From: Prochloraceae cyanobacterium PL24a_bin.78 | GTDB taxonomy: Bacteria > Cyanobacteriota > Cyanobacteriia > Cyanobacteriales > JANQIW01 | Assembly (NCBI GenBank): GCA_028281945.1 | Contig: JANQIW010000037.1 | Span: forward strand, 494-64,493 | Reading direction: 5' to 3' | Length of the DNA: 64,000 bases | Shown: in pieces, positions 232-39,731 of the stretch | Numbering within the stretch: position 1 is the stretch's first letter | Layout: each line of letters begins with the position of its first letter | The notes under the pieces: generated by a model | Seen by the model: only the letters and a program-made list of their open reading frames with translations | Databases searched by the model: none | Told to the model about the DNA's origin: nothing | Position numbers and translations under genes: made by a program

Positions 232-1146
232 TTACAAACAAGATGCGATCGTCGCCAAAACTGAATCACTTAAAGACTGTAAATCATAACCACCTTCCAA
301 GCCGAATAAAATCTTACGAGTAATACCAAGACAATAATCAGTAAAAACTCCATAATCTTGAGGTAATAAATTAATATCAGCCAAAGGATCATCACGATTA
401 CCATCATAACCCGCACTAACAATAAGTAAATCAGGCTGGAAACCTTCTAGAAAAGGAATAATTTTACTCTCAAAAGCAACTTTATATTCATTAAAAGAAC
501 TCCCTGGAATCATAGGTATATTAAGAATATTTTCCCATTTTCCACCATAACTTGCCTCCCCGGTACCAGGGTAACAAGGATACTGATGAGTAGAACAATA
601 CCTAATATTAGCATTACTTTGAATAATAGATTCTGTCCCATTACCATGATGAACATCCCAATCAAGTATAGCTACCTTATTGATATCGGATTTTTCTAGA
701 GCATAATAAGCAGCTATAGCGGCATTTGAAAATAAACAAAACCCCATACCTCTTTCCGATATAGCATGATGACCTGGAGGCCGTGCCAAAACAAAGGCAG
801 GATTGCTGGTATTCAATACCTCATCAACCCCATCTAACCAAGCACTTACCGCTAATAAAGCTATCTCATAACTAAGAGGAGAAACAGGAGTATCTGAATC
901 TAATCTCCCACCACCATTACTAGCAATATTTTTAACCCCATTAATATAATCAGGAGTATGAACTTTTTCTATAAAAGGTAATACATTCCTGTGATTTATA
1001 TCAGTCGGTAACTGCCAATTAATAGATTTTGCCATAGTAGATTCTTTAAGAGTTTTAACTATAGCTGTAAGACGTTGAGGGCATTCTGGATGAAAACTAC
1101 CAGTGTCATGTTTGAGAAATTCTTCTGAATAGATAACTGGAATCAT
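232..1146 (-). CDS. histone deacetylase / acetoin-utilization (AcuC-like) family deacetylase
   Basis: 304 aa with an ATG start. Carries the RPPGHHA, DWDVHHGNGT and SAGYD zinc-deacetylase motifs. Confidence 0.85.
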   Translation of the reverse strand: MIPVIYSEEFLKHDTGSFHPECPQRLTAIVKTLKESTMAKSINWQLPTDINHRNVLPFIEKVHTPDYINGVKNIASNGGGRLDSDTPVSPLSYEIALLAVSAWLDGVDEVLNTSNPAFVLARPPGHHAISERGMGFCLFSNAAIAAYYALEKSDINKVAILDWDVHHGNGTESIIQSNANIRYCSTHQYPCYPGTGEASYGGKWENILNIPMIPGSSFNEYKVAFESKIIPFLEGFQPDLLIVSAGYDGNRDDPLADINLLPQDYGVFTDYCLGITRKILFGLEGGYDLQSLSDSVLATIASCL

Positions 1147-1443
1147 TGGATATTTTTAAATAAAATAATCAGCTATTTAAAAAGGAAAATCTAAGGAGTA
1201 GAATTTTCTCTTTTAAATTATAGATTTCTGTTGACAAGAATTTTACCTCAAAAACCTCATCAATATCAAAAACATGGGCATTTTTTTCTACAATGACAAA
1301 ATTAACTGGAATGATTTTTCAAACTGGGCAATCTCGTTATCCTAAAAAATTTTGAGTTATGAATTTAATGCTTTTGAAACAGTAAAAAATAATTCTCCAG
1401 TCTATTTTGCTGCCCTAGTTTTTTTTAATAAAATATTTTACAA

Positions 1444-3102
1444 TTATTTTTCTAAAACAATTATAGGATTTAACCCCATATTAAGTAGATTTTGCTTAAC
1501 TTCATCAACATTTTTAACATCACTAAAAAGCCCTATTTGTAATACTCTTCGTCCATTATAGACAGAATTAAACACATCAGGATAAAGTGATCTCACTCTG
1601 CGTTCTTGAATTTTATTACTTACAGAAACCATAACTCGATAAGTTTGATTTATATTTCCCCTAGATTCAGGTTGAATAATTAAAATTTCTGATAAATTTC
1701 TTCTTCCATCGTTAGAATTATTAATTCCTTGACTAGTAGAAGAATTTCGATTAGTAGGAGAACTAATAACAGGAGGTGGAGGCAAAGTAGAACCATTGTT
1801 ATTACTGTTATTAAAATTACTATTATTACTATTATTAGAAGGGATATTTAAATTATCTTCAGCCGAAGGAGCAATAATATCAATTACCCTGCTTCCTGGA
1901 GGTGGTGGTGGTAAAGGAGGTAAATCTCTTCGAGATTGTGCGATAGTATTGCGATTAGAATTACGATGGAGATTTTGAGACGTTAGATTTATATTTTCAC
2001 CCCTTGCTGCAATGGGAAAAGCCCTTTGTAAGCCTGAATTATCTCCAAGAGAAACATTAGAAAGAGAATTATTAACCAAAGAATGATTTGGGATAATAGG
2101 GATATTACTGGTTACACTATTAAAATTAATCCTACCATTAGTAGCACCAGCTAGCTGATTTCCATAGGCACTAATAACCTCATTCTGATTACGATTATCA
2201 ATATCAGTAATACGATTGCCTAGAAAAGTATTATTACCCGGATTATTTCTAATACCAATATCTACTTGAGAATTTCCCTCTAAAACTAATCCTGACTCAC
2301 CAGAATTTTCAAATCGATTATTGCGTAAAATGCCCTTAGCATTAGCTTTCATCATTACCCCAACGTCATTACCTAAAAACTGATTACCTCGTAAAACAGC
2401 TTGAGAATTACCCACTAAAGTTATACCAAAACTATTTTTTTGAAATTCATTTTCAAGTAAATCTAACTTAGAATTATCTTTAAGCAATAAACCATTAACA
2501 CCATTATCTGAAAAATGATTGTTAGAAATCCTAGCATTACTACTACCTGTAACCAAAACTCCAGAATTACGATTACGAATGAATCTATTATTAGTAACCA
2601 TAGTACTAGCAGATTCCAATAATAATCCATATCCTGAATTGTGAGGATTAATTACAGTTATTCCAGAAATAGCTTGAGTAGACTTAGTTGCCACAATAGC
2701 AACATTTTGTAATCCACCAGTTGGGCTAGTATACCATCCACCACCTTGAATAGTAACAGTAGTACCTTTAGCAGGATTATCACCTTTAAAAATTATATTT
2801 TTATCAATCACCAAAGGAAAAACTTCACCAGTGGAACTATTATATGTTCCCCTTGCCAAAGAAATGATTCCGTTAGAAGGAGCTACTGATAGGGCTTGAG
2901 TAATAGTCTTAAAAGGATAAATTGAAGATCCTTTACCCTCCTTATCACTTCCATTATAAGGATTGACGTAAATAATATTGTGATTTTGAGATAATTCTTG
3001 CCTACTTCTATCACTAAACCTATTTTGAGCAAGAGCACTTTCAACAACAGAAAAAGGAATAATAATAAGAAGTAGGAAACTTAAATATATATTTTTATTC
3101 AT
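1444..3102 (-). CDS. secreted right-handed beta-helix (DUF1565 / pectin-lyase-fold-like) protein with Pro/Asn-rich linker and C-terminal SPOR-like domain
   Basis: 552 aa. Has an N-terminal signal peptide (MNKNIYLSFLLLIIIPFSVVESALA). Contains many NNxFxxNxxxGxxL beta-helix turns, a PPLPPPPPG/NNSNN linker, and a C-terminal YRVMVSV...LQIGLFSD...NLLNMGL segment resembling SPOR. Confidence 0.6.
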   Translation of the reverse strand: MNKNIYLSFLLLIIIPFSVVESALAQNRFSDRSRQELSQNHNIIYVNPYNGSDKEGKGSSIYPFKTITQALSVAPSNGIISLARGTYNSSTGEVFPLVIDKNIIFKGDNPAKGTTVTIQGGGWYTSPTGGLQNVAIVATKSTQAISGITVINPHNSGYGLLLESASTMVTNNRFIRNRNSGVLVTGSSNARISNNHFSDNGVNGLLLKDNSKLDLLENEFQKNSFGITLVGNSQAVLRGNQFLGNDVGVMMKANAKGILRNNRFENSGESGLVLEGNSQVDIGIRNNPGNNTFLGNRITDIDNRNQNEVISAYGNQLAGATNGRINFNSVTSNIPIIPNHSLVNNSLSNVSLGDNSGLQRAFPIAARGENINLTSQNLHRNSNRNTIAQSRRDLPPLPPPPPGSRVIDIIAPSAEDNLNIPSNNSNNSNFNNSNNNGSTLPPPPVISSPTNRNSSTSQGINNSNDGRRNLSEILIIQPESRGNINQTYRVMVSVSNKIQERRVRSLYPDVFNSVYNGRRVLQIGLFSDVKNVDEVKQNLLNMGLNPIIVLEK

Positions 3103-3308
3103 TGTTTAAATTTTAAAGAGATTAATTTAAATGTAACAACTCATCATTGAATACAAATGATTCTCTAGAGAAGGGTTAGATTGTAAAGAAACGTAAACTG
3201 CCACAGATGTTACAAACAACCTATATTTTATCTTAAAAAATCTTGAATTGGATAGAGATTTAGAGAAAAAATGATTTTTTCTGCCATGATGATTAATAGG
3301 AAAAGACC

Positions 3309-3354
3309 ATTGCAAAGGATAGAGAAACCCAACGATTGCAAAGGATAGAGAAAC
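3309..3354. repeat. perfect 20-bp direct repeat (attgcaaaggatagagaaac) x2, 26-bp period, in a divergent promoter region
   Basis: Copies at 3309-3328 and 3335-3354 are identical. They lie between the divergent starts at 3102 (-) and 3467 (+). Confidence 0.9.
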
Positions 3355-3466
3355 AATAGACCTAGTAATATTTAAAATTACCAAAACAAATATAGAAAAT
3401 TATAAATAGGTTTTGTAGGAAGATTGCTATACAATAAAACCGCACCAATTTATGTAGAATTCTCAA

Positions 3467-4189
3467 GTGAAGCTTTTTGTTTATCATACCCCAGAGTCAA
3501 CACCTGAAGACAGTTTGCCCGATTGTGCAGTTGTCATTGACGTTTTGCGAGCCACAACTACAATTGCTACCGCCTTAAATGCCGGAGCCGAAGCAGTTCA
3601 AGCCTTCAAAGACATTGACGAATTAATGACAGTAAGTTCTCAATGGCTGCCCCAAAAGAGATTGAGAGCGGGGGAAAGAGGAGGGGCAAAAGTAGACGGT
3701 TTTGATTTAGGCAATTCACCCTTGGATTGTACCCCAGAAGTAGTACAGCACAAGCGATTGTTTCTGACTACCACCAACGGCACTCGTGCATTGGAACGAG
3801 TTCAATCTGCCTCAGTATTGATTACAGCGGCCTTTGTTAATTGTCAAGCCGCGGTCAATTATCTTCTGGAAAAAGAACCTTCCACTGTTTGGTTAGTAGG
3901 CTCCGGTTGGCAAGGAGGTTATTCTCTTGAAGATACCGCTTGCGCTGGAGCCATCGCTCATTCCCTTGTCTCAAAAATTGATTATCAAGTAGCTAATGAC
4001 GAAGTTATTGCTGCCATCGCCCTTTATACCCAATGGCAAGATCGAATGTTAGAAATGTTTGAACAATCTACCCATGGCCAACGTTTATTGAAATTAGACT
4101 GCCATCGAGATTTAGAGTATTGTGCCCAAAGCAATATTTTAGATGTTCTTCCAATTCAAAATGAGGCCAAAGTTTTAATAAAAAGTTAA
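3467..4189 (+). CDS. comB: 2-phosphosulfolactate phosphatase family protein (ComB)
   Basis: 240 aa with a GTG start. Motifs [31 protein letters not shown] and TTTNGT are typical of the ComB family. Confidence 0.8.
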
Positions 4190-6933: not shown

Positions 6934-7851
6934 TCATATCTGTTTCCAATGCCTTACACAAGGGGCAAGAGTAATTAAATCATGAATATTAACCTCCATC
7001 GTTTTACAAATATCGTCTAAAGGTAAATCGTTAGGATCATAACCAAAAGGATTTTCGATTTGGATACCAATTTCTTCAATGCCAAACACAGTAAATGCAA
7101 TAATACCAACAATAATACCTGTCCACCAATGAACCTCATCTATCACTTGAAAAGGCAAAGTCAAACAATAAATTAACAATAATTGCTTAAGATGAATGGA
7201 ATAAGCGATAGGAATAGGAGTTTTCTTAATTCTTTCACAAGCTCCCAATACATCCACCATGATGTCGAGGAATTTCAACATACTGGTAAGCTGAATCACA
7301 TTAATACATTGACGATCGTATTGTTGTTGAAGATAATCACCAATCCAAAAAGCAACTTCCAAAGGAGGATTATTCATCTCTCTAAGTTTTTCAAACCATT
7401 GCCGAGGCATTAAAACTTCTAATTCACTATTAACTTTCTCCTCTCGAAGATGTAATTTAGTTGCTACAGCAAAGGCTATTAATAAACGCAAAGTAGCTAT
7501 TTTTTCTTGTCTATCTTTTGCTTCATTTTCTTCAATACTAACCCAAATTGTCCGAGCAAAATTACGAACAGTATTAACTAAACTTCCCCACATTTTTCGC
7601 CCTTCCCAAAACCTTTCATAAGCGGTATTTGTCCGAAATACTAATAATAAACCTAATACAATACTAGGAAAAATAGTGCTTAAAATTGGTAAAGAAACAT
7701 TGATACCAAAACTATCCAATAAAGAAATAAGAAACCCAAATAAACTACAACCAATTACTCTTGGTAAAATATTTAGCAAAACAGACGATCGTAACTGCAA
7801 TACTATTCGCCACCAATTACGTCTTTCTCGATCCCAGTTTTTCAGTAACAT
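6934..7851 (-). CDS. bestrophin-family (UPF0187/YneE-like) anion channel
   Basis: 305 aa with TM helices and the FRTNTAYERFWEGRKMWG signature. Confidence 0.8.
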   Translation of the reverse strand: MLLKNWDRERRNWWRIVLQLRSSVLLNILPRVIGCSLFGFLISLLDSFGINVSLPILSTIFPSIVLGLLLVFRTNTAYERFWEGRKMWGSLVNTVRNFARTIWVSIEENEAKDRQEKIATLRLLIAFAVATKLHLREEKVNSELEVLMPRQWFEKLREMNNPPLEVAFWIGDYLQQQYDRQCINVIQLTSMLKFLDIMVDVLGACERIKKTPIPIAYSIHLKQLLLIYCLTLPFQVIDEVHWWTGIIVGIIAFTVFGIEEIGIQIENPFGYDPNDLPLDDICKTMEVNIHDLITLAPCVRHWKQI

Positions 7852-25483: not shown

Positions 25484-25888
25484 TTAATTTCTCCAGTTTT
25501 CGATCGTCAACCCATCAATCCTTTGAAATTCACGAACATTACTAGTAACAAGAATTAAGTTATGAACTAATGCCGTTGCACCAATTAGGAGATCATATGC
25601 TCCGATAGGAGTTCCCGCCTGTTTTAAATCACTACGAATCCTAGCTGCATATGCTGCTTCTTCATTTCCAAAAGGAATTTGAATTATTTGAGATAACAGT
25701 TTATTAATACTAGGCTCTATTTTTCCTGCTTTAGCTGGCTTAAGATTTAGACCAAATTTTATTTCCATTATTGTTATGGTTGATACAGCCAAATTCAAAG
25801 GATTAAAGGATTTAAAGTTAATAATAGTATTAGGATCACTTTCAACTATATCACTGATAGCACAAGTATCAAGCAAATATTCAACCAC
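25484..25888 (-). CDS. vapC: type II toxin VapC (PIN domain)
   Basis: 134 aa. The YLLDTCAIS start, TIMEI, and the DLLIGATAL...LVTSNVREF PIN acidic-residue pattern are present. The GTG start overlaps the antitoxin stop (TAGTG). Confidence 0.8.
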   Translation of the reverse strand: MVEYLLDTCAISDIVESDPNTIINFKSFNPLNLAVSTITIMEIKFGLNLKPAKAGKIEPSINKLLSQIIQIPFGNEEAAYAARIRSDLKQAGTPIGAYDLLIGATALVHNLILVTSNVREFQRIDGLTIENWRN

Positions 25889-26241
25889 TAAAATACGCCC
25901 TCAGAAGAAGGAGGAATAAGATCATCACGATAGGATTCAAAACGAAGATCTTCTTTCATTTCCCTAAATTCATTAATGGTTTCTAACCAATAAGCCCTTT
26001 TTTCCTCATCTATTTCAGATTCTACTCCATTAAAATTTAAGAATTCTTCTGACCACTTACTGTTCTTTTTATTGTTACTTTCATTTTTAAATCCTTCCTC
26101 CTCTAAATTATTTCCCAATTTTTCTTCAACCAACGATCGAACTGCTTCTTTCACTAAATATTCTTTAGATTTACCACTTTCAAGAGCAATTTTTTCCAAT
26201 TTATTAACTAGGGTATCTTCAAGATCGATATTTATTATCAT
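25888..26241 (-). CDS. ribbon-helix-helix-type antitoxin (VapB-like)
   Basis: 117 aa. IDLEDTLVNKLEKIALESGKSKEYLVKEAVRSLVEE is RHH-like. The gene overlaps vapC by 1 nt. Confidence 0.65.
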   Translation of the reverse strand: MIINIDLEDTLVNKLEKIALESGKSKEYLVKEAVRSLVEEKLGNNLEEEGFKNESNNKKNSKWSEEFLNFNGVESEIDEEKRAYWLETINEFREMKEDLRFESYRDDLIPPSSEGVF

Positions 26242-26369: not shown

Positions 26370-26624
26370 TCAACTTTTAGGAAACTTAAGTCGAATTTTC
26401 TTAGCAAATTGCCAACATTTAGCACAAGAAATTAGATTACTAAAACAAATAACACAAATCCAACTAAGCTTACCAGAAATTAATAAAATACCACCGAATA
26501 AACTAAAACCAAAAGATATAGCTGTTGCTGCTAAGGCAAGATTAAAGCTTAAACGAATTTGACGAAGATATTCTTGAGCAAATTCTAATTTAATTTTTGA
26601 GTCTAAATTTTTGTTATTTTCCAT
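26370..26624 (-). CDS. small two-TM membrane protein
   Basis: 84 aa with two hydrophobic helices (LALAATAISFGFSLFGGILLI and WICVICFSNLISCA). It lies upstream of vapBC on the same strand and diverges from the pentapeptide array. Confidence 0.5.
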   Translation of the reverse strand: MENNKNLDSKIKLEFAQEYLRQIRLSFNLALAATAISFGFSLFGGILLISGKLSWICVICFSNLISCAKCWQFAKKIRLKFPKS

Positions 26625-26808
26625 CGTTTAATTCTTGAATGTTTTATTACAATTTAATTATCATCTACAATATTTATCAAATAGACTATGTCAAGAATTT
26701 GTTGCGATCGATGTTTGCTTCTCTTGTGCTTTTCTTCTGATTGGGATGAGAATAAACTCCAATTTTAAGATTTAATAGAAATTAAATAACCTAATTTAAA
26801 ACAAATAA

Positions 26809-27759
26809 ATGGGGAGAATAACTTACATTGCTACTGAAAAAGGCATAGAAAAAGCAGAAAAAGCACTAGAAAGACTGGGTTTTGGATCAAAACAAAATTT
26901 TGCCAAATGTATATATGTATCGAGATCAAGTGTTACACATTTTTTTAATCGTTCAAAAGGGCTTCAATTAGATACCTTTGAGAGAATATGCGAAGAACTA
27001 ATGCTAAATTGGAAAGAAATAGCAGGAATAGAAGAAGATCAAGAATCTTTTTCATCAAAAAAAAGCAATGCTAGTAGTTTAATTGTTAAAGAAAATATCG
27101 AACAAGAAAGACAATCAAGCCGTGAAATAAAGGTATTAGATACAAATAATCAAAAAATTAAAGCAGTTATAACCTTACAGGGGAATCTTGATTCTGTTGA
27201 AAATAAACAAATTTTTGAGACTATCTTAAAACAATACTCAGGAGATACTATCCAAATTAATGATATTAAAGAAGGAAGTATTAAGCTACACATAGAAGGT
27301 TCTCAAGAAGATATTCAAAAACTAGTATCTCTTATTAAAAATGGTGAATTAAAAGAATTAAATAGTTTTCCTATTGAAAATATTCAAATCAATAAATGGG
27401 ATTTAGTAAAACGTATTATTGATAAAAACCTATCTTTGATTGAAAAACGCTCCTTACAAGGTGTTGATCTCAGTGATGCCGATCTCAGTGGTGCCCATCT
27501 CACAGCTGCCCATCTCAGTGGTGCCCATCTCAATTTTTCCGATCTCAGTGGTGCCCATCTCATAGGTGCCAATCTCAGTTTTTCTAATCTTATAGATGCC
27601 GACCTTAGAGATGCTGATCTTAGAGATGCCGAGGTATTAGAAACTCGTTTTGGCAATAATTTAGGTATGACACAATCTTTAAAAGAGGATTTAATTTCAC
27701 GTGGAGCAATTTTTGGAGAAGAGGATTACTCTAAGAAAAAAATTCTTACACCTATTTAG
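26809..27759 (+). CDS. HTH-like head + alpha/beta middle module + pentapeptide-repeat protein (paralog 1, ~12 pentads)
   Basis: 316 aa. The N-terminus GIEKAEKALERLGFGSKQNFAK...SSVTHFFNRSKGLQLDTFERICEELMLNWKEIAG is shared with the two downstream genes. The repeat region is DLSDADLSGAHLTAAHLSGAHL... and the tail is RFGNNLGMTQSLKEDLISRGAIF. Confidence 0.85.
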   Translation: MGRITYIATEKGIEKAEKALERLGFGSKQNFAKCIYVSRSSVTHFFNRSKGLQLDTFERICEELMLNWKEIAGIEEDQESFSSKKSNASSLIVKENIEQERQSSREIKVLDTNNQKIKAVITLQGNLDSVENKQIFETILKQYSGDTIQINDIKEGSIKLHIEGSQEDIQKLVSLIKNGELKELNSFPIENIQINKWDLVKRIIDKNLSLIEKRSLQGVDLSDADLSGAHLTAAHLSGAHLNFSDLSGAHLIGANLSFSNLIDADLRDADLRDAEVLETRFGNNLGMTQSLKEDLISRGAIFGEEDYSKKKILTPI

Positions 27760-28018
27760 GCATTAATCAAACAAAACGAACCTCTCAAACAAGCATAGGA
27801 TTCCCCAAAGAAACCAACCTATGCTTAACCCTAACCCAAACCCCAGAGATAACCGAGAGAAAAATAAGGTATAATAGAAGAATAAAGTCAATGGAAAATC
27901 GAACAACACAAAAGATTAGAAAATAGACTTAATAAAACCCCGACGAGAATGTGGTATTTTTAGCATAAAAGCCGCCCAAACTGCTTTAAACTAACCATTA
28001 GAAACAAGAGGGTAAAAA

Positions 28019-29488
28019 ATGGAGAGAAAAACATACACAGCCACAGCAGAAGGAATAGAAAAAGCAGAAAAAGCATTAAACACACTAGGTTTTGCCTCAC
28101 AGATACTATTTGCAAAATCAATCAACGTCGCCCGTAATATCGTCACCAAATTTTTCAACACCTCATCAGGAATCCAACCAGACACATTCCAAAGGATATG
28201 CCAACACCTCAACCTCAACTGGGAAGAAATCGCAGGAATAAAACCAGAAAAAGAACCCCAACCATCCACCACACAAGAGCCAAATAAAACAAAACTTCCG
28301 GAAAATCAAACCAAAGAAACAATAAAAAAAACACAAATAACCCTACTCAACAAACAAGAACAAACCATAAAAGCAAATATAACCTTTAAAAGTATATTCT
28401 CATCCAAAGAAGACACAGAAATTTGTGCCAATATCCTCAAAGACTACTCAGGAAATCCCGTAAAAATAGAAGATACAAACGAAGGAATTACCAACCTATA
28501 TATAGAAGCCTCCACAGATGAAATCCATAAACTCATATCCAATATCAAAACAGGAGAACTAAGAGCAGTAAATAGCCTAATCATCGACAACATTCAAATA
28601 GACAAATGGGATCTCGTCAAAATCATCATCAATAAAGTAGAACCCTTCATCAACGAAGACTTATTCCAAAACATAGACTTAACAGACGTAGATCTAAGCT
28701 TTACCTATATAGGAAACACAGACTTAACAGAAACCGATTTAAGTGATGCCGACTTAAGCGATACCAACCTAACTAGAGCCAACCTTACCAACGCCGATTT
28801 AAGTAAAACCTCCCTCATTCGCGCTAATCTAACCCGTACATACCTAATCGATGCTTATCTAAGAGAAGCAGATCTCAAAGATGCCAACCTCAGTCGAGCA
28901 AATCTTACTCGTGCCAACCTCAGAGGAGTTAACCTAATTCGTGCCAACATCCAAGATGCCGATCTCACTCGAGCAAATCTAAGAGAAGCAGATCTCAAAG
29001 ATGCCAACCTCAGCCGTGCAAATCTAAGTCGCGCTAACCTCAGAGAAGTCAACTTTAGTGGTGCAAATCTAAGTCGCGCTAACCTCAGCGATGTTAACCT
29101 CAGTAATGCCAATCTCAAAGGAGCCAATCTCAGTGATGTTGACTTAGGAGATGCCTATCTTAGTGATGCCGACTTAAGTGATTGCGATCTCAATTTTACC
29201 AACTTTCGGGATGCCAACCTCAGTGGAGTTAATCTGACTCATGCCTCCCTAATTCGCGCCAACCTAATTCGTGTCAACCTCAGTGATGCTAACTTGATAG
29301 GTACAAATCTTAATCGTGTTAACCTTAGTGATGCCTGCCTGATTGATGCCAACTTGATTCGCGCTAATCTCACTGATATTAATCTCAGTGGTGCGAAAGT
29401 TAAAAACTGTCGTTTTGGAAATAATACCGGCATGACAGAATTTTTAAAAGAAGATTTGATCCAACGTGGTGCAATTTTTTATGATTAA
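28019..29488 (+). CDS. HTH-like head + middle module + pentapeptide-repeat protein (paralog 2, ~50 pentads)
   Basis: 489 aa with the same head, middle module, DKWDL junction and RFGNNTGMTEFLKEDLIQRGAIF tail. Carries about 250 aa of A(D/N)LxR-type pentads. Confidence 0.85.
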   Translation: MERKTYTATAEGIEKAEKALNTLGFASQILFAKSINVARNIVTKFFNTSSGIQPDTFQRICQHLNLNWEEIAGIKPEKEPQPSTTQEPNKTKLPENQTKETIKKTQITLLNKQEQTIKANITFKSIFSSKEDTEICANILKDYSGNPVKIEDTNEGITNLYIEASTDEIHKLISNIKTGELRAVNSLIIDNIQIDKWDLVKIIINKVEPFINEDLFQNIDLTDVDLSFTYIGNTDLTETDLSDADLSDTNLTRANLTNADLSKTSLIRANLTRTYLIDAYLREADLKDANLSRANLTRANLRGVNLIRANIQDADLTRANLREADLKDANLSRANLSRANLREVNFSGANLSRANLSDVNLSNANLKGANLSDVDLGDAYLSDADLSDCDLNFTNFRDANLSGVNLTHASLIRANLIRVNLSDANLIGTNLNRVNLSDACLIDANLIRANLTDINLSGAKVKNCRFGNNTGMTEFLKEDLIQRGAIFYD

Positions 29489-29725
29489 TTATTGACTTTT
29501 AACTATAATTCATCAATAATATTGGGAATATTAAATGTTATTTTGTCAATCTATATTTACATATTGTTACTTTTAAATAATTAAGAAAACCTTTGATTGT
29601 ATAAAAAATAGCACAATCATCATTCTACAACTGTTATTGTATAATCTATAGTAGATTTATAGTAATTTAAAACACTGCTCAAACTACTTGACAACTGCCA
29701 AATAGTTATATTCAAGAGGTTTAAA

Positions 29726-30982
29726 ATGGATAAAATAACTTGCACTCCAACGGTAGAAGGAATAGATAAAGCAGAAAAAGAGCTACAAAAATTAGGGTTT
29801 GAATCTAGAGAAAAATTTGGTCAAAAGACATTAATATCTAATATTGCAATAAAAAAGTTTTTTAATCGTTCAAAATTCATTCAATTTGATACATTTAAGA
29901 AAATATGTCAAGAACTTAACTTGAATTGGAAAGAAATAGCAGAAGAAGAAGATAAAGAATCCATAATAAACTATCTAAACAATCTCAATTCTCAAGAAAA
30001 TGAAAACATAGAAACAGAGATAGAAACAGTTGTAACCCTTCAGAATAATACTGATAAGGAAAATCAAAGCTTAAATCAAGTCATTAACTTAGAAATAAGT
30101 CATCATTTTGCAGATAAATGGGAATTAGCTGAAAAACTTCTTTCAGAAACAGAAAATTTTATCGATCGAAAACTACTCAAAGGAATTGACTTAAGCGATA
30201 CAAGTCTAAAAAATGCTGATCTTAAAGAAGCAGATCTAAGATATAGTAACCTTTATAATGCAGACTTAAGCGGTGCAAACCTAATTAAATCTAACTTAGT
30301 CCATGCTAATTTTAAGAATGCAAATCTGAAGAAAGCTGATCTTAGCTATAGTAGCCTTAGATATGTTAACCTAATCCGAGTTAATCTCAGACAAGCCAAT
30401 TTAACTCGTGTCCATTTAAGTAATGCCAACCTCACCAAAGCAGATCTCAGATCTGCCAATCTTAGTTGTGCCGATCTCAGATATACTAAATTAACTGATA
30501 TTAACTTAAGTGGTGCAAACCTCAGTAATGCCAGTCTTAGTGGTGTCAACCTAAGTGGTGTTGACTTAAGCGGTGCAAATTTGAGCGATGCAGATCTTAG
30601 TAATGCCAATCTCACTAATGCTAACCTCAGTGGTGCAAATCTCAGTAAAGCAAACCTGAGCAAAGCAAACCTTAAAGGAGCTGATCTTAGCAAAACAGGA
30701 CTCAATTTTTCTAACTTCAGAGATACCAACCTCAAAGATGTCAATTTTAGTGAAGCTTACATGATTTGTGCCAATCTTAAAGGAGCTAATCTCAAAAACG
30801 CTAATCTGAGTGAAGCCCAATTGATTCGTGCTAATCTGAGTAAAGCTGATCTCAAAAATACTAACCTAATTGATGCTAATCTCAATGGAGCTAATTTCTC
30901 TGGAGCGAAGAAAAAATTTGCTCATTTTCAAGTTGATAGTGAGATCAAACAACCTTTACCAGAAGATTCTATAGCAATTTAA
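29726..30982 (+). CDS. HTH-like head + pentapeptide-repeat protein (paralog 3, ~49 pentads, middle module deleted)
   Basis: 418 aa with the same head (GIDKAEKELQKLGFESREKF...FDTFKKICQELNLNWKEIA) and DKWEL junction. The C-terminus is different. Confidence 0.85.
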   Translation: MDKITCTPTVEGIDKAEKELQKLGFESREKFGQKTLISNIAIKKFFNRSKFIQFDTFKKICQELNLNWKEIAEEEDKESIINYLNNLNSQENENIETEIETVVTLQNNTDKENQSLNQVINLEISHHFADKWELAEKLLSETENFIDRKLLKGIDLSDTSLKNADLKEADLRYSNLYNADLSGANLIKSNLVHANFKNANLKKADLSYSSLRYVNLIRVNLRQANLTRVHLSNANLTKADLRSANLSCADLRYTKLTDINLSGANLSNASLSGVNLSGVDLSGANLSDADLSNANLTNANLSGANLSKANLSKANLKGADLSKTGLNFSNFRDTNLKDVNFSEAYMICANLKGANLKNANLSEAQLIRANLSKADLKNTNLIDANLNGANFSGAKKKFAHFQVDSEIKQPLPEDSIAI

Positions 30983-33751: not shown

Positions 33752-35068
<1,317 letters not shown>

Positions 35069-36605: not shown

Positions 36606-39600
36606 TTATTCAAGTTTCCGCCAATCTCCGGAAAGTACAAAGGCTGACCAGAAAAATGGATGTTCATATTCAGGATTATTTAACATTGACAGTTGAGTTT
36701 GTCGCAAAGCAAGGGATCGATCGACATTTTCTTTGATAATCAATTGATAATAGTTAGTCATCAAATCCTTAGTTCCCTGATCTGATACACTCCATAAACT
36801 CATTAATAAAGTTTCCGCACCTGCAAGTACAAATGCCCGTCGCAATCCATACACACCTTCTCCGTTGTGTACATCTCCTAATCCTGTTTCACAAGCACTT
36901 AAAACTACTAATTTTGTCCCCCATAAGTCTAAACTAGATGCTTCTAATCCCGTTAATAGTCCTTGTTGTTTGCCTTCAGGAGTGTTAAATCCTGCAAATA
37001 TTAATCCCGATCGTAATAAAGGATTTTCGTTTCTGACAGGTTGCCGTGAATTATTATCGAATTTCGTGGGATTTTCTATTTCTTGATCCGGTAAGAAAAA
37101 TCCATGGGTCGCTATATGTAGGATTTTAGGTGCTTCAGCAGCTTTGATAACTTCATCAATTGCTTCTCCTTCAGTAAAAATACGAGCATTTGGAAGTAAA
37201 GGTTTAATGGCTTCGGCTTCTGCTGCTGTGCCCGGTAAAGGAGTACAACAATTCAGTTGATCTAAATCTGCCGAACGACGATCTTTCCCAAGAATACTAC
37301 TTGCTGTTAAAGGGGCGTTATTATTCTGACTAACAAAATTATAGTCAGGATTAGCTACGATGAGAGAATTAGAACGAGAAGGAGCGGATTCTTGTAATTT
37401 AATCAAGTCACGTCCGCTAGTGAGATTAGTAAAGAGGTAATTTTCTACTAAATAATCACCATTTTCATCTACCAATGCAGCAAAAGGAATGCGATTTAGT
37501 AGTCCATCAGGAGATATAAATATATGTTCTTTATCTTTTAAAAGAGGACGTAAAGGTTTCATCACCAACTCATCTACTTCACGAGCAATTTCTTTAAACC
37601 GTGAAATTTGTCTTTGTAATTTTTGTATGTTGGAAGATGGCTGGCTACTACTAATTAAGAGAAGGCTTTGTATTTTTTCGTCAATGATTTCAGCTTCACC
37701 TAAATCGATAGCTTTTGGTTCACCATTGGGATGCAAAATATAGGCAGCATAACGGAGTTCTTCTAATTCCAAAGTTTTGGTATTGCCAAGACGATAAACA
37801 ATAAATTCAATCAAAACAGTATCATCTGGCATAGCTTTTTGCACAGCTTCCATGGTGACAGGTTTTAATTCCTTAGCAAATTGGGAATTGCGATTAGATA
37901 GAGAGGTTTCTAGGGTTTGAATTTCTGTTTCTAAAGTAGTAAGTTGTTCTTGGTATTGTTGTAAAGGAATTGTCTCTGATTTTTCAAATACAAGGTTAGA
38001 TAATTGAGTGCGTTTCTCTGATATTTTATCTAATAAAGCTTTGTCTTCAGGATTAAGACGCTGACGAATATTTTGGACGATATTACCTAAAGAATCCAGA
38101 ATGCGACCTTTTCGACGTAGGATCGTAGTCATAGCAAGGCGTGCAGCTTCTTGGTTATCAGGTGCATTTTGTAAATGAAGAGATATTGTCCAATAAGTTG
38201 TACCAAATAGACTATTAAGATAAGCTGTTTTGCGTGCTTCTGAGCCAATGGTGGTTAAAAAAGCACTTAAATTTTTTTCTTCAATGTCAGTACTTCTAGT
38301 TAGATATTTTAGAGCAAGAGGAATATTATTTTGTACTAAGTATAATCCTGAGAGATTGCTAAGATAACTAGTAGTCTGAGGATGTTCTGCCCCTAAAACT
38401 TCTTCATTGATAGTAAGAGCACGTTGAAATAAATACTCCGCTTCACTGTAATTTCCTTGTTCTCTGTATAAATCTCCTAAATTGTTGAGAGAAATAGCAG
38501 TATGGGGATGTTTTTCTCCGAAGATTTCTTCTCGAATCCCAAGAGCACGTAGATATAATGGTTCTGCTTTACTGTAATTTCCTTGACTGCTGTATAACAC
38601 TCCCAGATTGTTCAAAGTTGTTGCAGTTAAGTGATGATTTTCTGGTAATACTTCCTCAAATATGGCAAGAGCACGTAGATATAATGGTTCTGCTTTACTG
38701 TAATTTCTTTGTGTCCTGTATAATTCTGCCAGATTGTTGAGAGATTGAGCAGTTAAGTAATGATTTTCTGGTAACACTTCTTCAAATATGGCAAGAACAC
38801 GTTTATATAATGGCTCTGCTCCACTATAATTTCCTTGCTTGCTGTATAATTCTGCCAGATTATTCAGAGTTTTTGCAGTTAAGGAATGTTTTTCTCCTAA
38901 GACTTCTTCTTGAATAGCAAGGGCACGTTGAAATAAAGGCTCTGCTTTACTGTAATTTCCTTGTGTACTGTATAAATTTCCCAAGTTGTTGAGAGAAATA
39001 GCAGTATGGGGATGTTTTTCTCCGAAGATTTCTTCTCGAATGGCAAGAGCGCGTTGATATAAAGCCTCTGTTTTACTATAATTTCCTTGTGAATTGTATA
39101 ATAGTCCCAAAGTGTTGAGAGATTGAGCAATATCGGGGTGTTTTGGTTCTAAGATTTCTTCTCGAATCCCAAGAGATTGTTGTGCTTTGCTTCTGGCTTC
39201 ATCATATTTCCCCTGTTGGTATAATTGTAGTGCTTGTATATTTAAATCTTCTGCTTCTGCTAATCGAAAATCTTCTGGTGTTGCTTCTCGAAAACTTAAG
39301 CTATAGTTACCCAATTCTCCGGGTTTAATAGCAAGAATACCGAGTGTATAAGTTCCAGTCTCAGGCAAAGTGATAACAATTCTTGAATTATTGCCTTCAC
39401 CTCCATCATTGTTGTCAGCTATTGTTTTATTATCGGAATCGAGCAAAACTAACGAGGGATCGAATTCTGAGCTAGTTAAATCGATCGTCAACTTTTCTCC
39501 TGCCATTCCTTCAAAAGTATGGAGATTAAAATAAGTCCCATTTTCAAGACTATTACTATTGCTATCTAGTGTGCCATTAATAGTAGAATTCCTTTGAGCT

Positions 39601-39731
39601 AACTGTTGTGGTGAATTTAAGTTAACTTGGGCGATCGCCTCAATATTAGTTCCAGAGATGATGACACTGCCAACTAAAAGAGAATAAAAAATATGAGGTA
39701 TTTTACTTTTAAGGATATTAAATTTTAGCAT
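36606..39731 (-). CDS. secreted PPC-domain / TPR-repeat / CHAT-domain (caspase-like) protein
   Basis: 1041 aa. Has a signal peptide and an N-terminal pre-peptidase-C-like beta domain. Carries about 8 TPR_12-type 42-aa units (NNLxxLYxxQGNYSKAEPLYxRALAIxEE). The C-terminal CHAT domain has HIATHGFF and LVVLSACETG (His/Cys dyad). Confidence 0.85.
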   Translation of the reverse strand: MLKFNILKSKIPHIFYSLLVGSVIISGTNIEAIAQVNLNSPQQLAQRNSTINGTLDSNSNSLENGTYFNLHTFEGMAGEKLTIDLTSSEFDPSLVLLDSDNKTIADNNDGGEGNNSRIVITLPETGTYTLGILAIKPGELGNYSLSFREATPEDFRLAEAEDLNIQALQLYQQGKYDEARSKAQQSLGIREEILEPKHPDIAQSLNTLGLLYNSQGNYSKTEALYQRALAIREEIFGEKHPHTAISLNNLGNLYSTQGNYSKAEPLFQRALAIQEEVLGEKHSLTAKTLNNLAELYSKQGNYSGAEPLYKRVLAIFEEVLPENHYLTAQSLNNLAELYRTQRNYSKAEPLYLRALAIFEEVLPENHHLTATTLNNLGVLYSSQGNYSKAEPLYLRALGIREEIFGEKHPHTAISLNNLGDLYREQGNYSEAEYLFQRALTINEEVLGAEHPQTTSYLSNLSGLYLVQNNIPLALKYLTRSTDIEEKNLSAFLTTIGSEARKTAYLNSLFGTTYWTISLHLQNAPDNQEAARLAMTTILRRKGRILDSLGNIVQNIRQRLNPEDKALLDKISEKRTQLSNLVFEKSETIPLQQYQEQLTTLETEIQTLETSLSNRNSQFAKELKPVTMEAVQKAMPDDTVLIEFIVYRLGNTKTLELEELRYAAYILHPNGEPKAIDLGEAEIIDEKIQSLLLISSSQPSSNIQKLQRQISRFKEIAREVDELVMKPLRPLLKDKEHIFISPDGLLNRIPFAALVDENGDYLVENYLFTNLTSGRDLIKLQESAPSRSNSLIVANPDYNFVSQNNNAPLTASSILGKDRRSADLDQLNCCTPLPGTAAEAEAIKPLLPNARIFTEGEAIDEVIKAAEAPKILHIATHGFFLPDQEIENPTKFDNNSRQPVRNENPLLRSGLIFAGFNTPEGKQQGLLTGLEASSLDLWGTKLVVLSACETGLGDVHNGEGVYGLRRAFVLAGAETLLMSLWSVSDQGTKDLMTNYYQLIIKENVDRSLALRQTQLSMLNNPEYEHPFFWSAFVLSGDWRKLE

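Follow-up and report, generated by a model that had tools for sequence, protein, structure and literature searches.

Bacterial TRADD-N domains have been catalogued by Kaur, Iyer, Burroughs and Aravind (eLife 2021, PMC8195603), and in the passages of that paper devoted to them TRADD-N is described as an RRM/ACT-like domain with a conserved Ser at the beta2-beta3 turn. The bacterial proteins treated there follow a common order, with a variable N-terminal domain (an effector, an adaptor or a helix-turn-helix (HTH)), the TRADD-N domain and C-terminal repeats, including pentapeptide repeats; TRADD-N is proposed to be a bridging switch between its flanking domains, and in the eukaryotic prototype it is a protein-protein adaptor. 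The source data of the same paper hold 118 entries for the architecture "TRADD-N-aHTH1+TRADD-N+Pentapeptide", and for Moorea and Microcystis they include double and triple arrays next to a divergent gene left unnamed ("<-?"). Here, we describe an array of three such genes (P1, P2 and P3) and a divergent gene for a small protein with two transmembrane segments (2-TM) in a stretch of 64,000 nucleotides (nt) from Prochloraceae cyanobacterium PL24a_bin.78 (GenBank assembly GCA_028281945.1, contig JANQIW010000037.1, positions 494 to 64,493 of the forward strand). This whole stretch is referred to as the window, and window positions count from its first letter.

Judged by their domain content, P1, P2 and P3 are members of this already catalogued cyanobacterial family, which combines a predicted DNA-binding head, a TRADD-N adaptor and a pentapeptide rod. 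P1 (26809-27759, + strand, 316 amino acids (aa)) is a canonical member. It starts with an XRE-type HTH head (aa 1-75, 26809-27033; AlphaFold2 and Foldseek) followed by a disordered linker, and continues with TRADD-N (aa 116-194, 27154-27390; Pfam PF20694, TRADD-like_N, 63.1 bits against a gathering score of 23.7, E 2e-17), a cap helix KWDLVKRII (27394-27420), about 13 pentapeptide repeats (27451-27663; Pfam Pentapeptide, E 1.5e-15) and a C-terminal helix with tail (27664-27723), the cap and the terminal helix being taken from the AlphaFold2 model. Orthologs with 46-53% identity have the same layout, and P1 carries every residue that is invariant in canonical family members; exact-sequence look-ups of P1 (P0001 in our protein set) and of a further family protein, P0114, found neither on record. 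An earlier note on this DNA, made from the letters alone, had taken the arrangement for an undescribed architecture. This view has to be given up, since the middle module is TRADD-N, the 2-TM gene belongs to Pfam family PF20712, and both the architecture and the arrays appear in the passages cited above. P1 shares with the proteins listed there the domain order, the taxa and the partner 2-TM family, and tandem arrays are listed as well; in the window, by contrast, TRADD-N is degenerate in one copy and deleted in another, and both the 2-TM protein and the intergenic element have diverged to an unusual degree. The window array represents a catalogued family in a diverged and partly degenerate form. 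In the neighbourhood tables accompanying those passages the gene is mostly stand-alone or beside the unnamed "<-?", and neither the cis-element nor the presence of the head on NACHT and SAVED proteins is described in the passages themselves. The value added here is modest and consists of a conserved putative operator array, a head cassette shared with NACHT and SAVED/CD-NTase sensors, and a variable effector slot.

For comparison, 75 loci were collected by scanning species-representative genomes with an alignment of the head and TRADD-N, and a metagenome scan yielded 45 further loci, some of them redundant with the genome set. As the loci are mutually related, the counts below are not counts of independent events. 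All named loci are cyanobacterial and belong to mostly filamentous genera (Nostoc, Calothrix, Fischerella, Rivularia, Microcoleus, Moorena, Symploca and others). At 50% identity, the family comprises 130 clusters with E<=1e-30 and 353 with E<=1e-10. Genomic context and copy number within a genome vary among the loci.

The gene facing P1 (26370-26624, - strand, 84 aa) lies 184 bp away in divergent orientation and matches PF20712 (CyanoTRADDas_TM, "Cyanobacterial TRADD-N associated 2-Transmembrane domain") with 39.8 bits against a cut-off of 24.3 (E 5e-10). A hidden Markov model (HMM) built from orthologs, with the window sequence excluded, recovers the protein with E 2e-18, and its hydropathy profile has two hydrophobic segments; a word-indexed homolog search with the window protein found only itself. 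The earlier note had already pointed to this small divergent gene, and the survey establishes it as the true partner, since it is the divergent upstream gene in most surveyed loci: it lies directly upstream in 56 of the 75 genome loci (57 if the frameshifted copy of locus L066 is included) and in about 36 of the 45 metagenome loci, mostly at a distance of 100-270 bp from the regulator. For Calothrix PCC 7103, the pairing is confirmed by independent gene calls with precomputed Pfam assignments.

Between the 2-TM gene and the head gene, a block of 110-130 nt is conserved across orders, with the consensus ...ACTTCTAAT..TTGACTA..CAATGATTGTGTTGT..CTTGTGATT..CTATGATTGT..TATGC..AGTTTTGATTGCG. According to a profile search, 73 of 77 loci, the set available at the time of this count, carry the block on the + strand immediately upstream of the head gene, as do 40 of the 45 metagenome loci. 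The motif TGATT occurs 2.6 times per region on the + strand compared to 0.33 times on the - strand, with distances of 11, 22, 33 or 55 nt between the copies, which thus lie on one face of the helix. RNAalifold predicts 0 base pairs for the element, and it has no Rfam match; an element acting at the DNA level, made up of promoters plus candidate binding sites, is therefore the better reading. In the window, the divergent intergenic region (26625-26808) contains a weak collinear remnant of the element (26682-26744) with one TGATT at position 26738, and a promoter-like site for the 2-TM gene at 26694-26667 (- strand). An nhmmer search of the whole window with the element profile returned nothing, and a promoter and terminator scan of the region was uninformative, with counts equal to those of shuffled sequences.

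The head itself was modelled by AlphaFold2 with five helices (pLDDT about 80-92), and Foldseek matched it to HipB, C.BclI, SinR-N, ImmR and CapH-N with target TM-scores of 0.6-0.75 and root-mean-square deviations of 2-2.8 A. The Pfam models HTH_26 and HTH_3 remain just under threshold on the heads (HTH_26 13-19 bits against a cut-off of 22 bits). According to the structure model, the head is a Cro/C1 (XRE) domain with the five-helix lambda-repressor-like fold and is predicted to bind DNA, in line with the earlier note, which had taken the head for a probable DNA-binding HTH. The best structural matches are thus XRE controllers (the C proteins of restriction-modification systems, HipB, CapH and ImmR), which are small repressors gating a harmful gene from an adjacent operator. 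However, these controllers have neither a TRADD-N domain nor a rod, whereas here the HTH forms the N-terminus of a sensor protein of 300-950 aa, and the candidate sites are phased direct repeats.

P2 (28019-29488, 489 aa) and P3 (29726-30982, 418 aa) follow P1 on the + strand as consecutive paralogs, exactly at the open reading frame (ORF) coordinates given in the earlier note. The array is real, and apart from two details the description of its common features in that note is accurate. In the three-way alignment, 33 residues are invariant within the first 72 columns, including GI.KAEK.L..LGF.S and FFN.S...Q.DTF..IC..L.LNW.EIA, and phmmer relates the P1 head to those of P2 (E 6e-25) and P3 (E 9e-21) and the P1 middle module to that of P2 (E 5e-17); by these scores, the similarity among the three proteins is far beyond chance. 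The P2 head (28019-28243) has its closest relative in the P1 head, with 64% identity, and the P3 head spans 29726-29950. P1 and P2 also share the middle module and the tail RFGNN.GMT..LKEDLI.RGAIF. In P3, a 61-column gap falls exactly on the middle module, the C-terminus has diverged and the tail is left as a faint remnant. Two details required correction: of the claimed DKW(D/E)L junction, KW(D/E)L is kept in all three proteins and the leading D is N in P1; and of the repeat numbers, previously given as about 12, 50 and 49, the first was recounted as about 13, with 50 and 49 left unchanged.

The second and third copies have lost several family features. In P2, as in P1, TRADD-N sits at aa 116-194 between the head (aa 1-75) and the repeats (after aa 215); the P2 domain (about 28364-28600) is degenerate, with 16.8 bits against the Pfam cut-off of 23.7, and still homologous to that of P1 by the phmmer comparison. 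It has replaced S157, I158, K159 and G164, all invariant in seven canonical members; G156-S157 of P1, likewise invariant in these seven, lies at the beta2-beta3 turn, where P2 has I at position 157. In P3 the TRADD-N core behind the head is deleted: aa 73-151 have no Pfam match, and the flanking remnants VVTLQNN (first strand) and ADKWEL (junction) are retained. The presumed recognition helix of P3 carries the changes R39 to N and T43 to K, at two positions that are invariant across alignment A2 (eight sequences). P2 and P3 both lack a 2-TM gene and a family cis-element of their own, and a six-frame HMM search found no relic 2-TM genes between P1 and P2 or between P2 and P3. All these losses would be expected if P1 and the 2-TM gene alone were functional and P2 and P3 were drifting to loss, so that the triplication would have no meaning at the level of a system. 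On the other hand, both frames run uninterrupted through 489 and 418 codons, the repeat arrays are long and regular, and head-plus-pentapeptide proteins without a Pfam-detectable TRADD-N exist elsewhere (for example P0114). In addition, P3 has a candidate operator of its own, the perfect inverted repeat TGATTGT-N12-ACAATCA (29594-29619), located 106 nt upstream of the gene; it contains the TGATTG core of the family and is the single match in the 64-kb window, with 0.01 expected by chance. Mere decay of the two copies is possible in our view, albeit rather unlikely.

Pentapeptide repeats (PF00805) of the A(D/N)LXX type, at least eight of them in a row, are present in all three proteins, and next to the P1 array described above these are the P2 array of about 50 repeats (about 28664-29413, E 1e-68), followed by the conserved tail, and the P3 array of about 49 repeats (about 30176-30916, E 1.5e-73), followed by the diverged C-terminus. 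The full-length AlphaFold2 model of P1 shows a regular beta-helix (pLDDT 81-93); in this model, the KWDL motif forms a short helix capping the start of the beta-helix, and the conserved tail forms a helix past its end. P2 contains an internal duplication with a unit of 120 nt (8 pentads) in 2.3 copies (28859-29133). Close relatives from Microcoleus have lengths of 396-475 aa and thus differ by up to 79 residues. Among orthologs, the rods differ about 10-fold in length; judged from proteins of 220-950 aa, they have between about 3 and more than 30 coils. These comparisons indicate that the rods lengthen by block duplication and that their length changes quickly.

The head is found on several other kinds of sensor proteins. 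It is fused to NACHT and NCH2 in two loci (L070, 7989-10301; L072, 1795-4143), which retain the cis-element and in which another small hydrophobic ORF (82 aa) fills the divergent slot. Further fusions are to an AAA_35 ATPase (L003, 1602-3008), to NCH2 only (L074) and, in protein P0121, to SAVED (L078). The latter locus (positions 541-3650; JGI metagenome 3300081624, contig Ga0671644_0000873) contains, in this order, a canonical and divergent PF20712 gene, the cis-element (E 1e-24), the gene for the head-SAVED protein and a downstream gene for a DncV-like CD-NTase with AGS_C. It looks like an operon of the cyclic oligonucleotide-based antiphage signalling system (CBASS) type that uses the same output cassette, the SAVED protein having an HTH output. 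On the basis of these loci, the head, the cis-element and the divergent gene move together between sensors as a cassette.

These fusions connect the family to known immune systems. CBASS, with its SAVED proteins and transmembrane effectors, is approached by the relative of the head that is fused to SAVED beside a CD-NTase and has the same 2-TM gene, and with Csa3 (CARF plus winged HTH), type III CRISPR systems provide a known example of an immune transcription factor gated by a ligand. However, the window proteins have neither SAVED nor CARF, no cyclase gene lies in the window region, and their presumed sensor is TRADD-N together with the pentapeptide rod. Similarly, antiphage proteins resembling NOD-like receptors (NACHT/STAND) are linked to the family by the two NACHT and NCH2 fusions, where the same head, with the cis-element, occupies the N-terminal 'effector' position, and they combine sensor, switch and output in one chain, as do the window regulators. 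The latter differ in having no NTPase, with TRADD-N in place of the NTP-dependent switch. Taken as a pair, the CD-NTase/SAVED operon and the NACHT link offer a concrete hypothesis for the output function.

The gene in the divergent slot is variable, too. In locus L006 it encodes a patatin-like phospholipase (6940-7806, - strand, E 2e-37) with the cis-element in between, and in L074 a PD-(D/E)XK nuclease (7125-7835, - strand, E 5e-5); other small hydrophobic ORFs take this place in Moorena and in L001, L013 and L041. A comparison with hhalign detected no distant relationship between PF20712 and the small hydrophobic ORFs that stand in for it (probability <1%). Abortive-infection systems typically use effectors of such classes, namely patatin lipases, small transmembrane proteins and nucleases. 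These replacements bear on another possible role of the 2-TM protein, which might be an anchor or anti-factor that holds the regulator at the membrane and releases it upon a membrane or envelope signal. Its cytoplasmic N-terminal helix and acidic tail would then bind TRADD-N or the rod, much as in a transmembrane anti-sigma factor and its partner. Such a role would fit the conserved cytoplasmic segments of PF20712 (IAQERLRQARYSFNLAL and AKDANDRLDK) and the short loop, which leave no obvious sensor or enzymatic part, the adaptor function of TRADD-N in the eukaryotic prototype, and the one-to-one pairing, which is tight even within arrays. However, a phospholipase or a nuclease in the same slot would be an effector and no anchor, the 2-TM gene also pairs with head-SAVED and head-only proteins that have neither TRADD-N nor a rod, and non-homologous small hydrophobic ORFs substitute freely for it. 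We consider a function as membrane anchor improbable and regard the 2-TM protein as a candidate for a regulated membrane effector.

P1 and the divergent 2-TM gene form one copy of a two-gene module that is widespread in cyanobacteria. A P1-type regulator unites the XRE-type HTH head, the disordered linker, the TRADD-N adaptor, the pentapeptide beta-helix and the C-terminal helix in a single chain. From this context, we propose the following mechanism. The head would bind the phased TGATT sites in the divergent intergenic region and thereby control its own gene and the opposite effector gene, and the rod, fast-changing in length, might offer a surface for binding a ligand or an invader. Binding to the rod would be passed on to the head by TRADD-N, a role as bridging switch like the one proposed in the TRADD-N passages of Kaur et al. 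2021 (PMC8195603). Upon activation, the small membrane protein would be made and damage the membrane, leading to cell arrest or death, that is, to an abortive-infection-type output reached via transcription. P2 and P3 are local duplicates of old standing that retained the head and enlarged the rod, with TRADD-N degenerate in P2 and deleted in P3; they would serve as extra sensors for the same or altered operators, or be decaying copies. Among the readings weighed here, a sensor-gated XRE-type regulator in control of a divergent, membrane-damaging effector gene is the most likely one, with slightly better than even odds for the explanation as a whole. We give the detailed chain of events, from the head on the phased array and the ligand-sensing rod to the TRADD-N relay and the switching on of a membrane-damaging gene, slightly less than an even chance. 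A conflict-type role, as suggested in the earlier note, is plausible.

One possible explanation without any conflict would be that the regulator is a lineage-specific transcription factor which, together with its membrane protein, serves filament physiology, for example cell-cell communication, differentiation or stress responses, like other cyanobacterial pentapeptide proteins. The family is limited to cyanobacteria of mostly filamentous genera, the window genes lie among housekeeping genes, and the conservation of the cis-element across orders suggests a stable, long-term regulation. In addition, no relatives were found on viral contigs in IMG/VR, and the family is absent from PADLOC. In contrast, a housekeeping or developmental factor would hardly be expected to share its head with NACHT, SAVED/CD-NTase and AAA_35 sensor proteins or to face patatin and nuclease genes in the divergent slot. 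The variable context and copy number, with one locus beside integrases and a reverse transcriptase, and the rapid variation in rod length also speak against it. Overall, such a role appears unlikely to us.

The module proposed above might be part of a wider principle. In this broader view, the head, the phased TGATT array and the divergent gene would constitute a portable transcriptional kill-switch cassette that cyanobacteria combine with no fewer than four sensor types (TRADD-N with the pentapeptide rod, NACHT, AAA_35, and SAVED with CD-NTase), the effector being made on demand. This generalization is tentative, and we hold it to be somewhat less probable than the functional model for the single module. 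If it were true, it would define an immune class in which the toxic effector is deployed by transcription, as opposed to pre-made effectors that are activated allosterically; the effectors would include the 2-TM protein, other small membrane proteins, a patatin lipase and possibly a nuclease. P1 and its 2-TM gene would be one member of this class, with the rod directly sensing a molecule of the invader and P2 and P3 as extra or decoy sensors. Bacterial TRADD-N domains have been proposed as ancestors or relatives of the animal cell-death adaptor, and the family provides a simple, testable case with a single regulator, a conserved putative operator array about 120 bp long and a single gene for a small membrane protein.

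Several observations weigh against the module, its wider generalization or their application to the window. The patatin, nuclease and SAVED/CD-NTase contexts are represented by one example each, and in the nuclease locus L074 the head match is distant (E 3e-8) and the cis-element was not detected. The element remnant in the window reaches 5.7 bits (E 0.0025 in a 1.6-kb nhmmer search), promoter-like sites are not enriched over shuffles, and operator-like sites in the form of direct repeats are unusual for XRE dimers. Furthermore, the basic N-terminal arm of the orthologs (KKKR; for example MTDPSLGRKKRKITI) is absent from P1-P3 with their starts at 26809, 28019 and 29726, and no in-frame upstream start exists that could restore it. 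Because of this loss and the diverged operator remnant, the DNA-binding mode may have shifted in the window lineage. The C-terminal half of the window 2-TM protein lacks the family motif AKDANDRLDK, and a frameshift does not account for it, as no alternative frame restores the motif. The TRADD-N domain of P1 was modelled as beta-alpha-beta-beta-alpha-beta with moderate confidence (pLDDT 60-75), and its Foldseek matches to acylphosphatase and RRM folds have weak E-values of 0.02-0.08; the model and the RRM matches are compatible with the published RRM/ACT-like description. At the level of the genome, the neighbours in the window are housekeeping genes (aminotransferase, flavoprotein, glycogen phosphorylase, enolase and GAPDH) and form no defence island. 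PADLOC-DB v2 gave no match except a sub-threshold HTH_VI hit for P1 (E 0.005), and a literature search found no experimental paper on the module.

The earlier note had pointed to a different mechanism, in which the head is joined to a Qnr/MfpA-like DNA-mimic rod that acts on gyrase or other DNA enzymes, together with the neighbouring VapBC pair. Pentapeptide beta-helices can indeed mimic DNA, as in MfpA and Qnr, whose repeat type (PF00805, a beta-helix that is quadrilateral and right-handed) is common to P1-P3, and the VapBC pair directly adjoins the 2-TM gene. It consists of a ribbon-helix-helix (RHH) antitoxin (25888-26241, - strand; Pfam VapB_antitoxin and RHH_1, the latter with 23.7 bits against 20.5) and a PIN/VapC toxin (25484-25888, - strand; Pfam PIN, 56.8 bits against 23.6), with 104 bits for the NCBIfam VapC equivalog, below its cut-off of 140. 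The two genes overlap by 1 nt, and Pfam thus confirms the overlapping RHH/PIN pair that had been placed on the - strand beside the 2-TM gene. However, the NCBIfam scores of the window proteins for Qnr and MfpA families are 20-127 bits against cut-offs of 240-500, with best values of 127 against 240 for Qnr and 73 against 360 for MfpA, and the proteins have 316-489 aa with extra domains. A rod of about 3 to more than 30 coils is also hard to square with a mimic that has the fixed shape of gyrase-bound DNA. When all flanking ORFs were clustered, no topoisomerase genes, gyrase included, turned out to be linked to the module, and there were no other conserved neighbours beyond local synteny among close relatives. 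None of the other 75 genome loci has the RHH and PIN genes, save for one stray PIN ORF in L075, and VapBC is therefore best seen as a bystander; by these comparisons, the pair is an ordinary type II toxin-antitoxin outside the module. A gyrase-directed mimic acting with VapBC is accordingly very hard to maintain. That P1 and the 2-TM gene belong to the catalogued family and that VapBC does not form part of the module is, in our judgement, close to certain.

Multi-copy arrays, whose recurrence in cyanobacteria the earlier note had brought up, are found elsewhere as well. For example, Calothrix sp. PCC 7103 (KB217480.1; locus L076, 3250-9489) has three adjacent modules, in which two PF20712 genes are intact and the third is truncated. 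Two of the regulators in this locus have long tetratricopeptide repeat (TPR) arrays behind a short pentapeptide stretch, so that the sensor part, too, is swappable. In Trichocoleus sp. DQ-A3 (L077, 878-5152), the neighbours of a module are a reverse transcriptase with an HTH gene and three fragments of integrases, a mobile or defence-island-like setting that differs from the housekeeping neighbourhood in the window. Head-only ORFs of about 97 aa are present beside an intact 2-TM gene and cis-element in L069 (7968-8267), L071 (7974-8264) and L073 (7962-8255); these are either truncated regulators or a minimal form consisting of HTH and 2-TM protein.

Opposite the pentapeptide arrays of the window, four long antisense ORFs rich in L, R, S and A are found on the - strand (27384-27656, 28855-29127, 29239-29433 and 30346-30744), and the same ORF family also occurs in antisense orientation in 21 other loci. 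They are by-products of the codon periodicity of the repeats. About 6 kb downstream of the array, the window encodes a 1041-aa protein (36606-39731, - strand) in which a PPC domain is combined with many TPR repeats and, at the C-terminus, a CHAT (caspase-like) domain, an architecture typical of cyanobacterial conflict-type proteins. The enolase gene (33752-35050, - strand) has at most 84% identity to any protein in a collection of 5.8 billion sequences, and its nearest named relatives are from Pleurocapsa, Xenococcaceae, Symploca and Stanieria. The G+C content is about 33%, and the source looks like a poorly represented cyanobacterial lineage.

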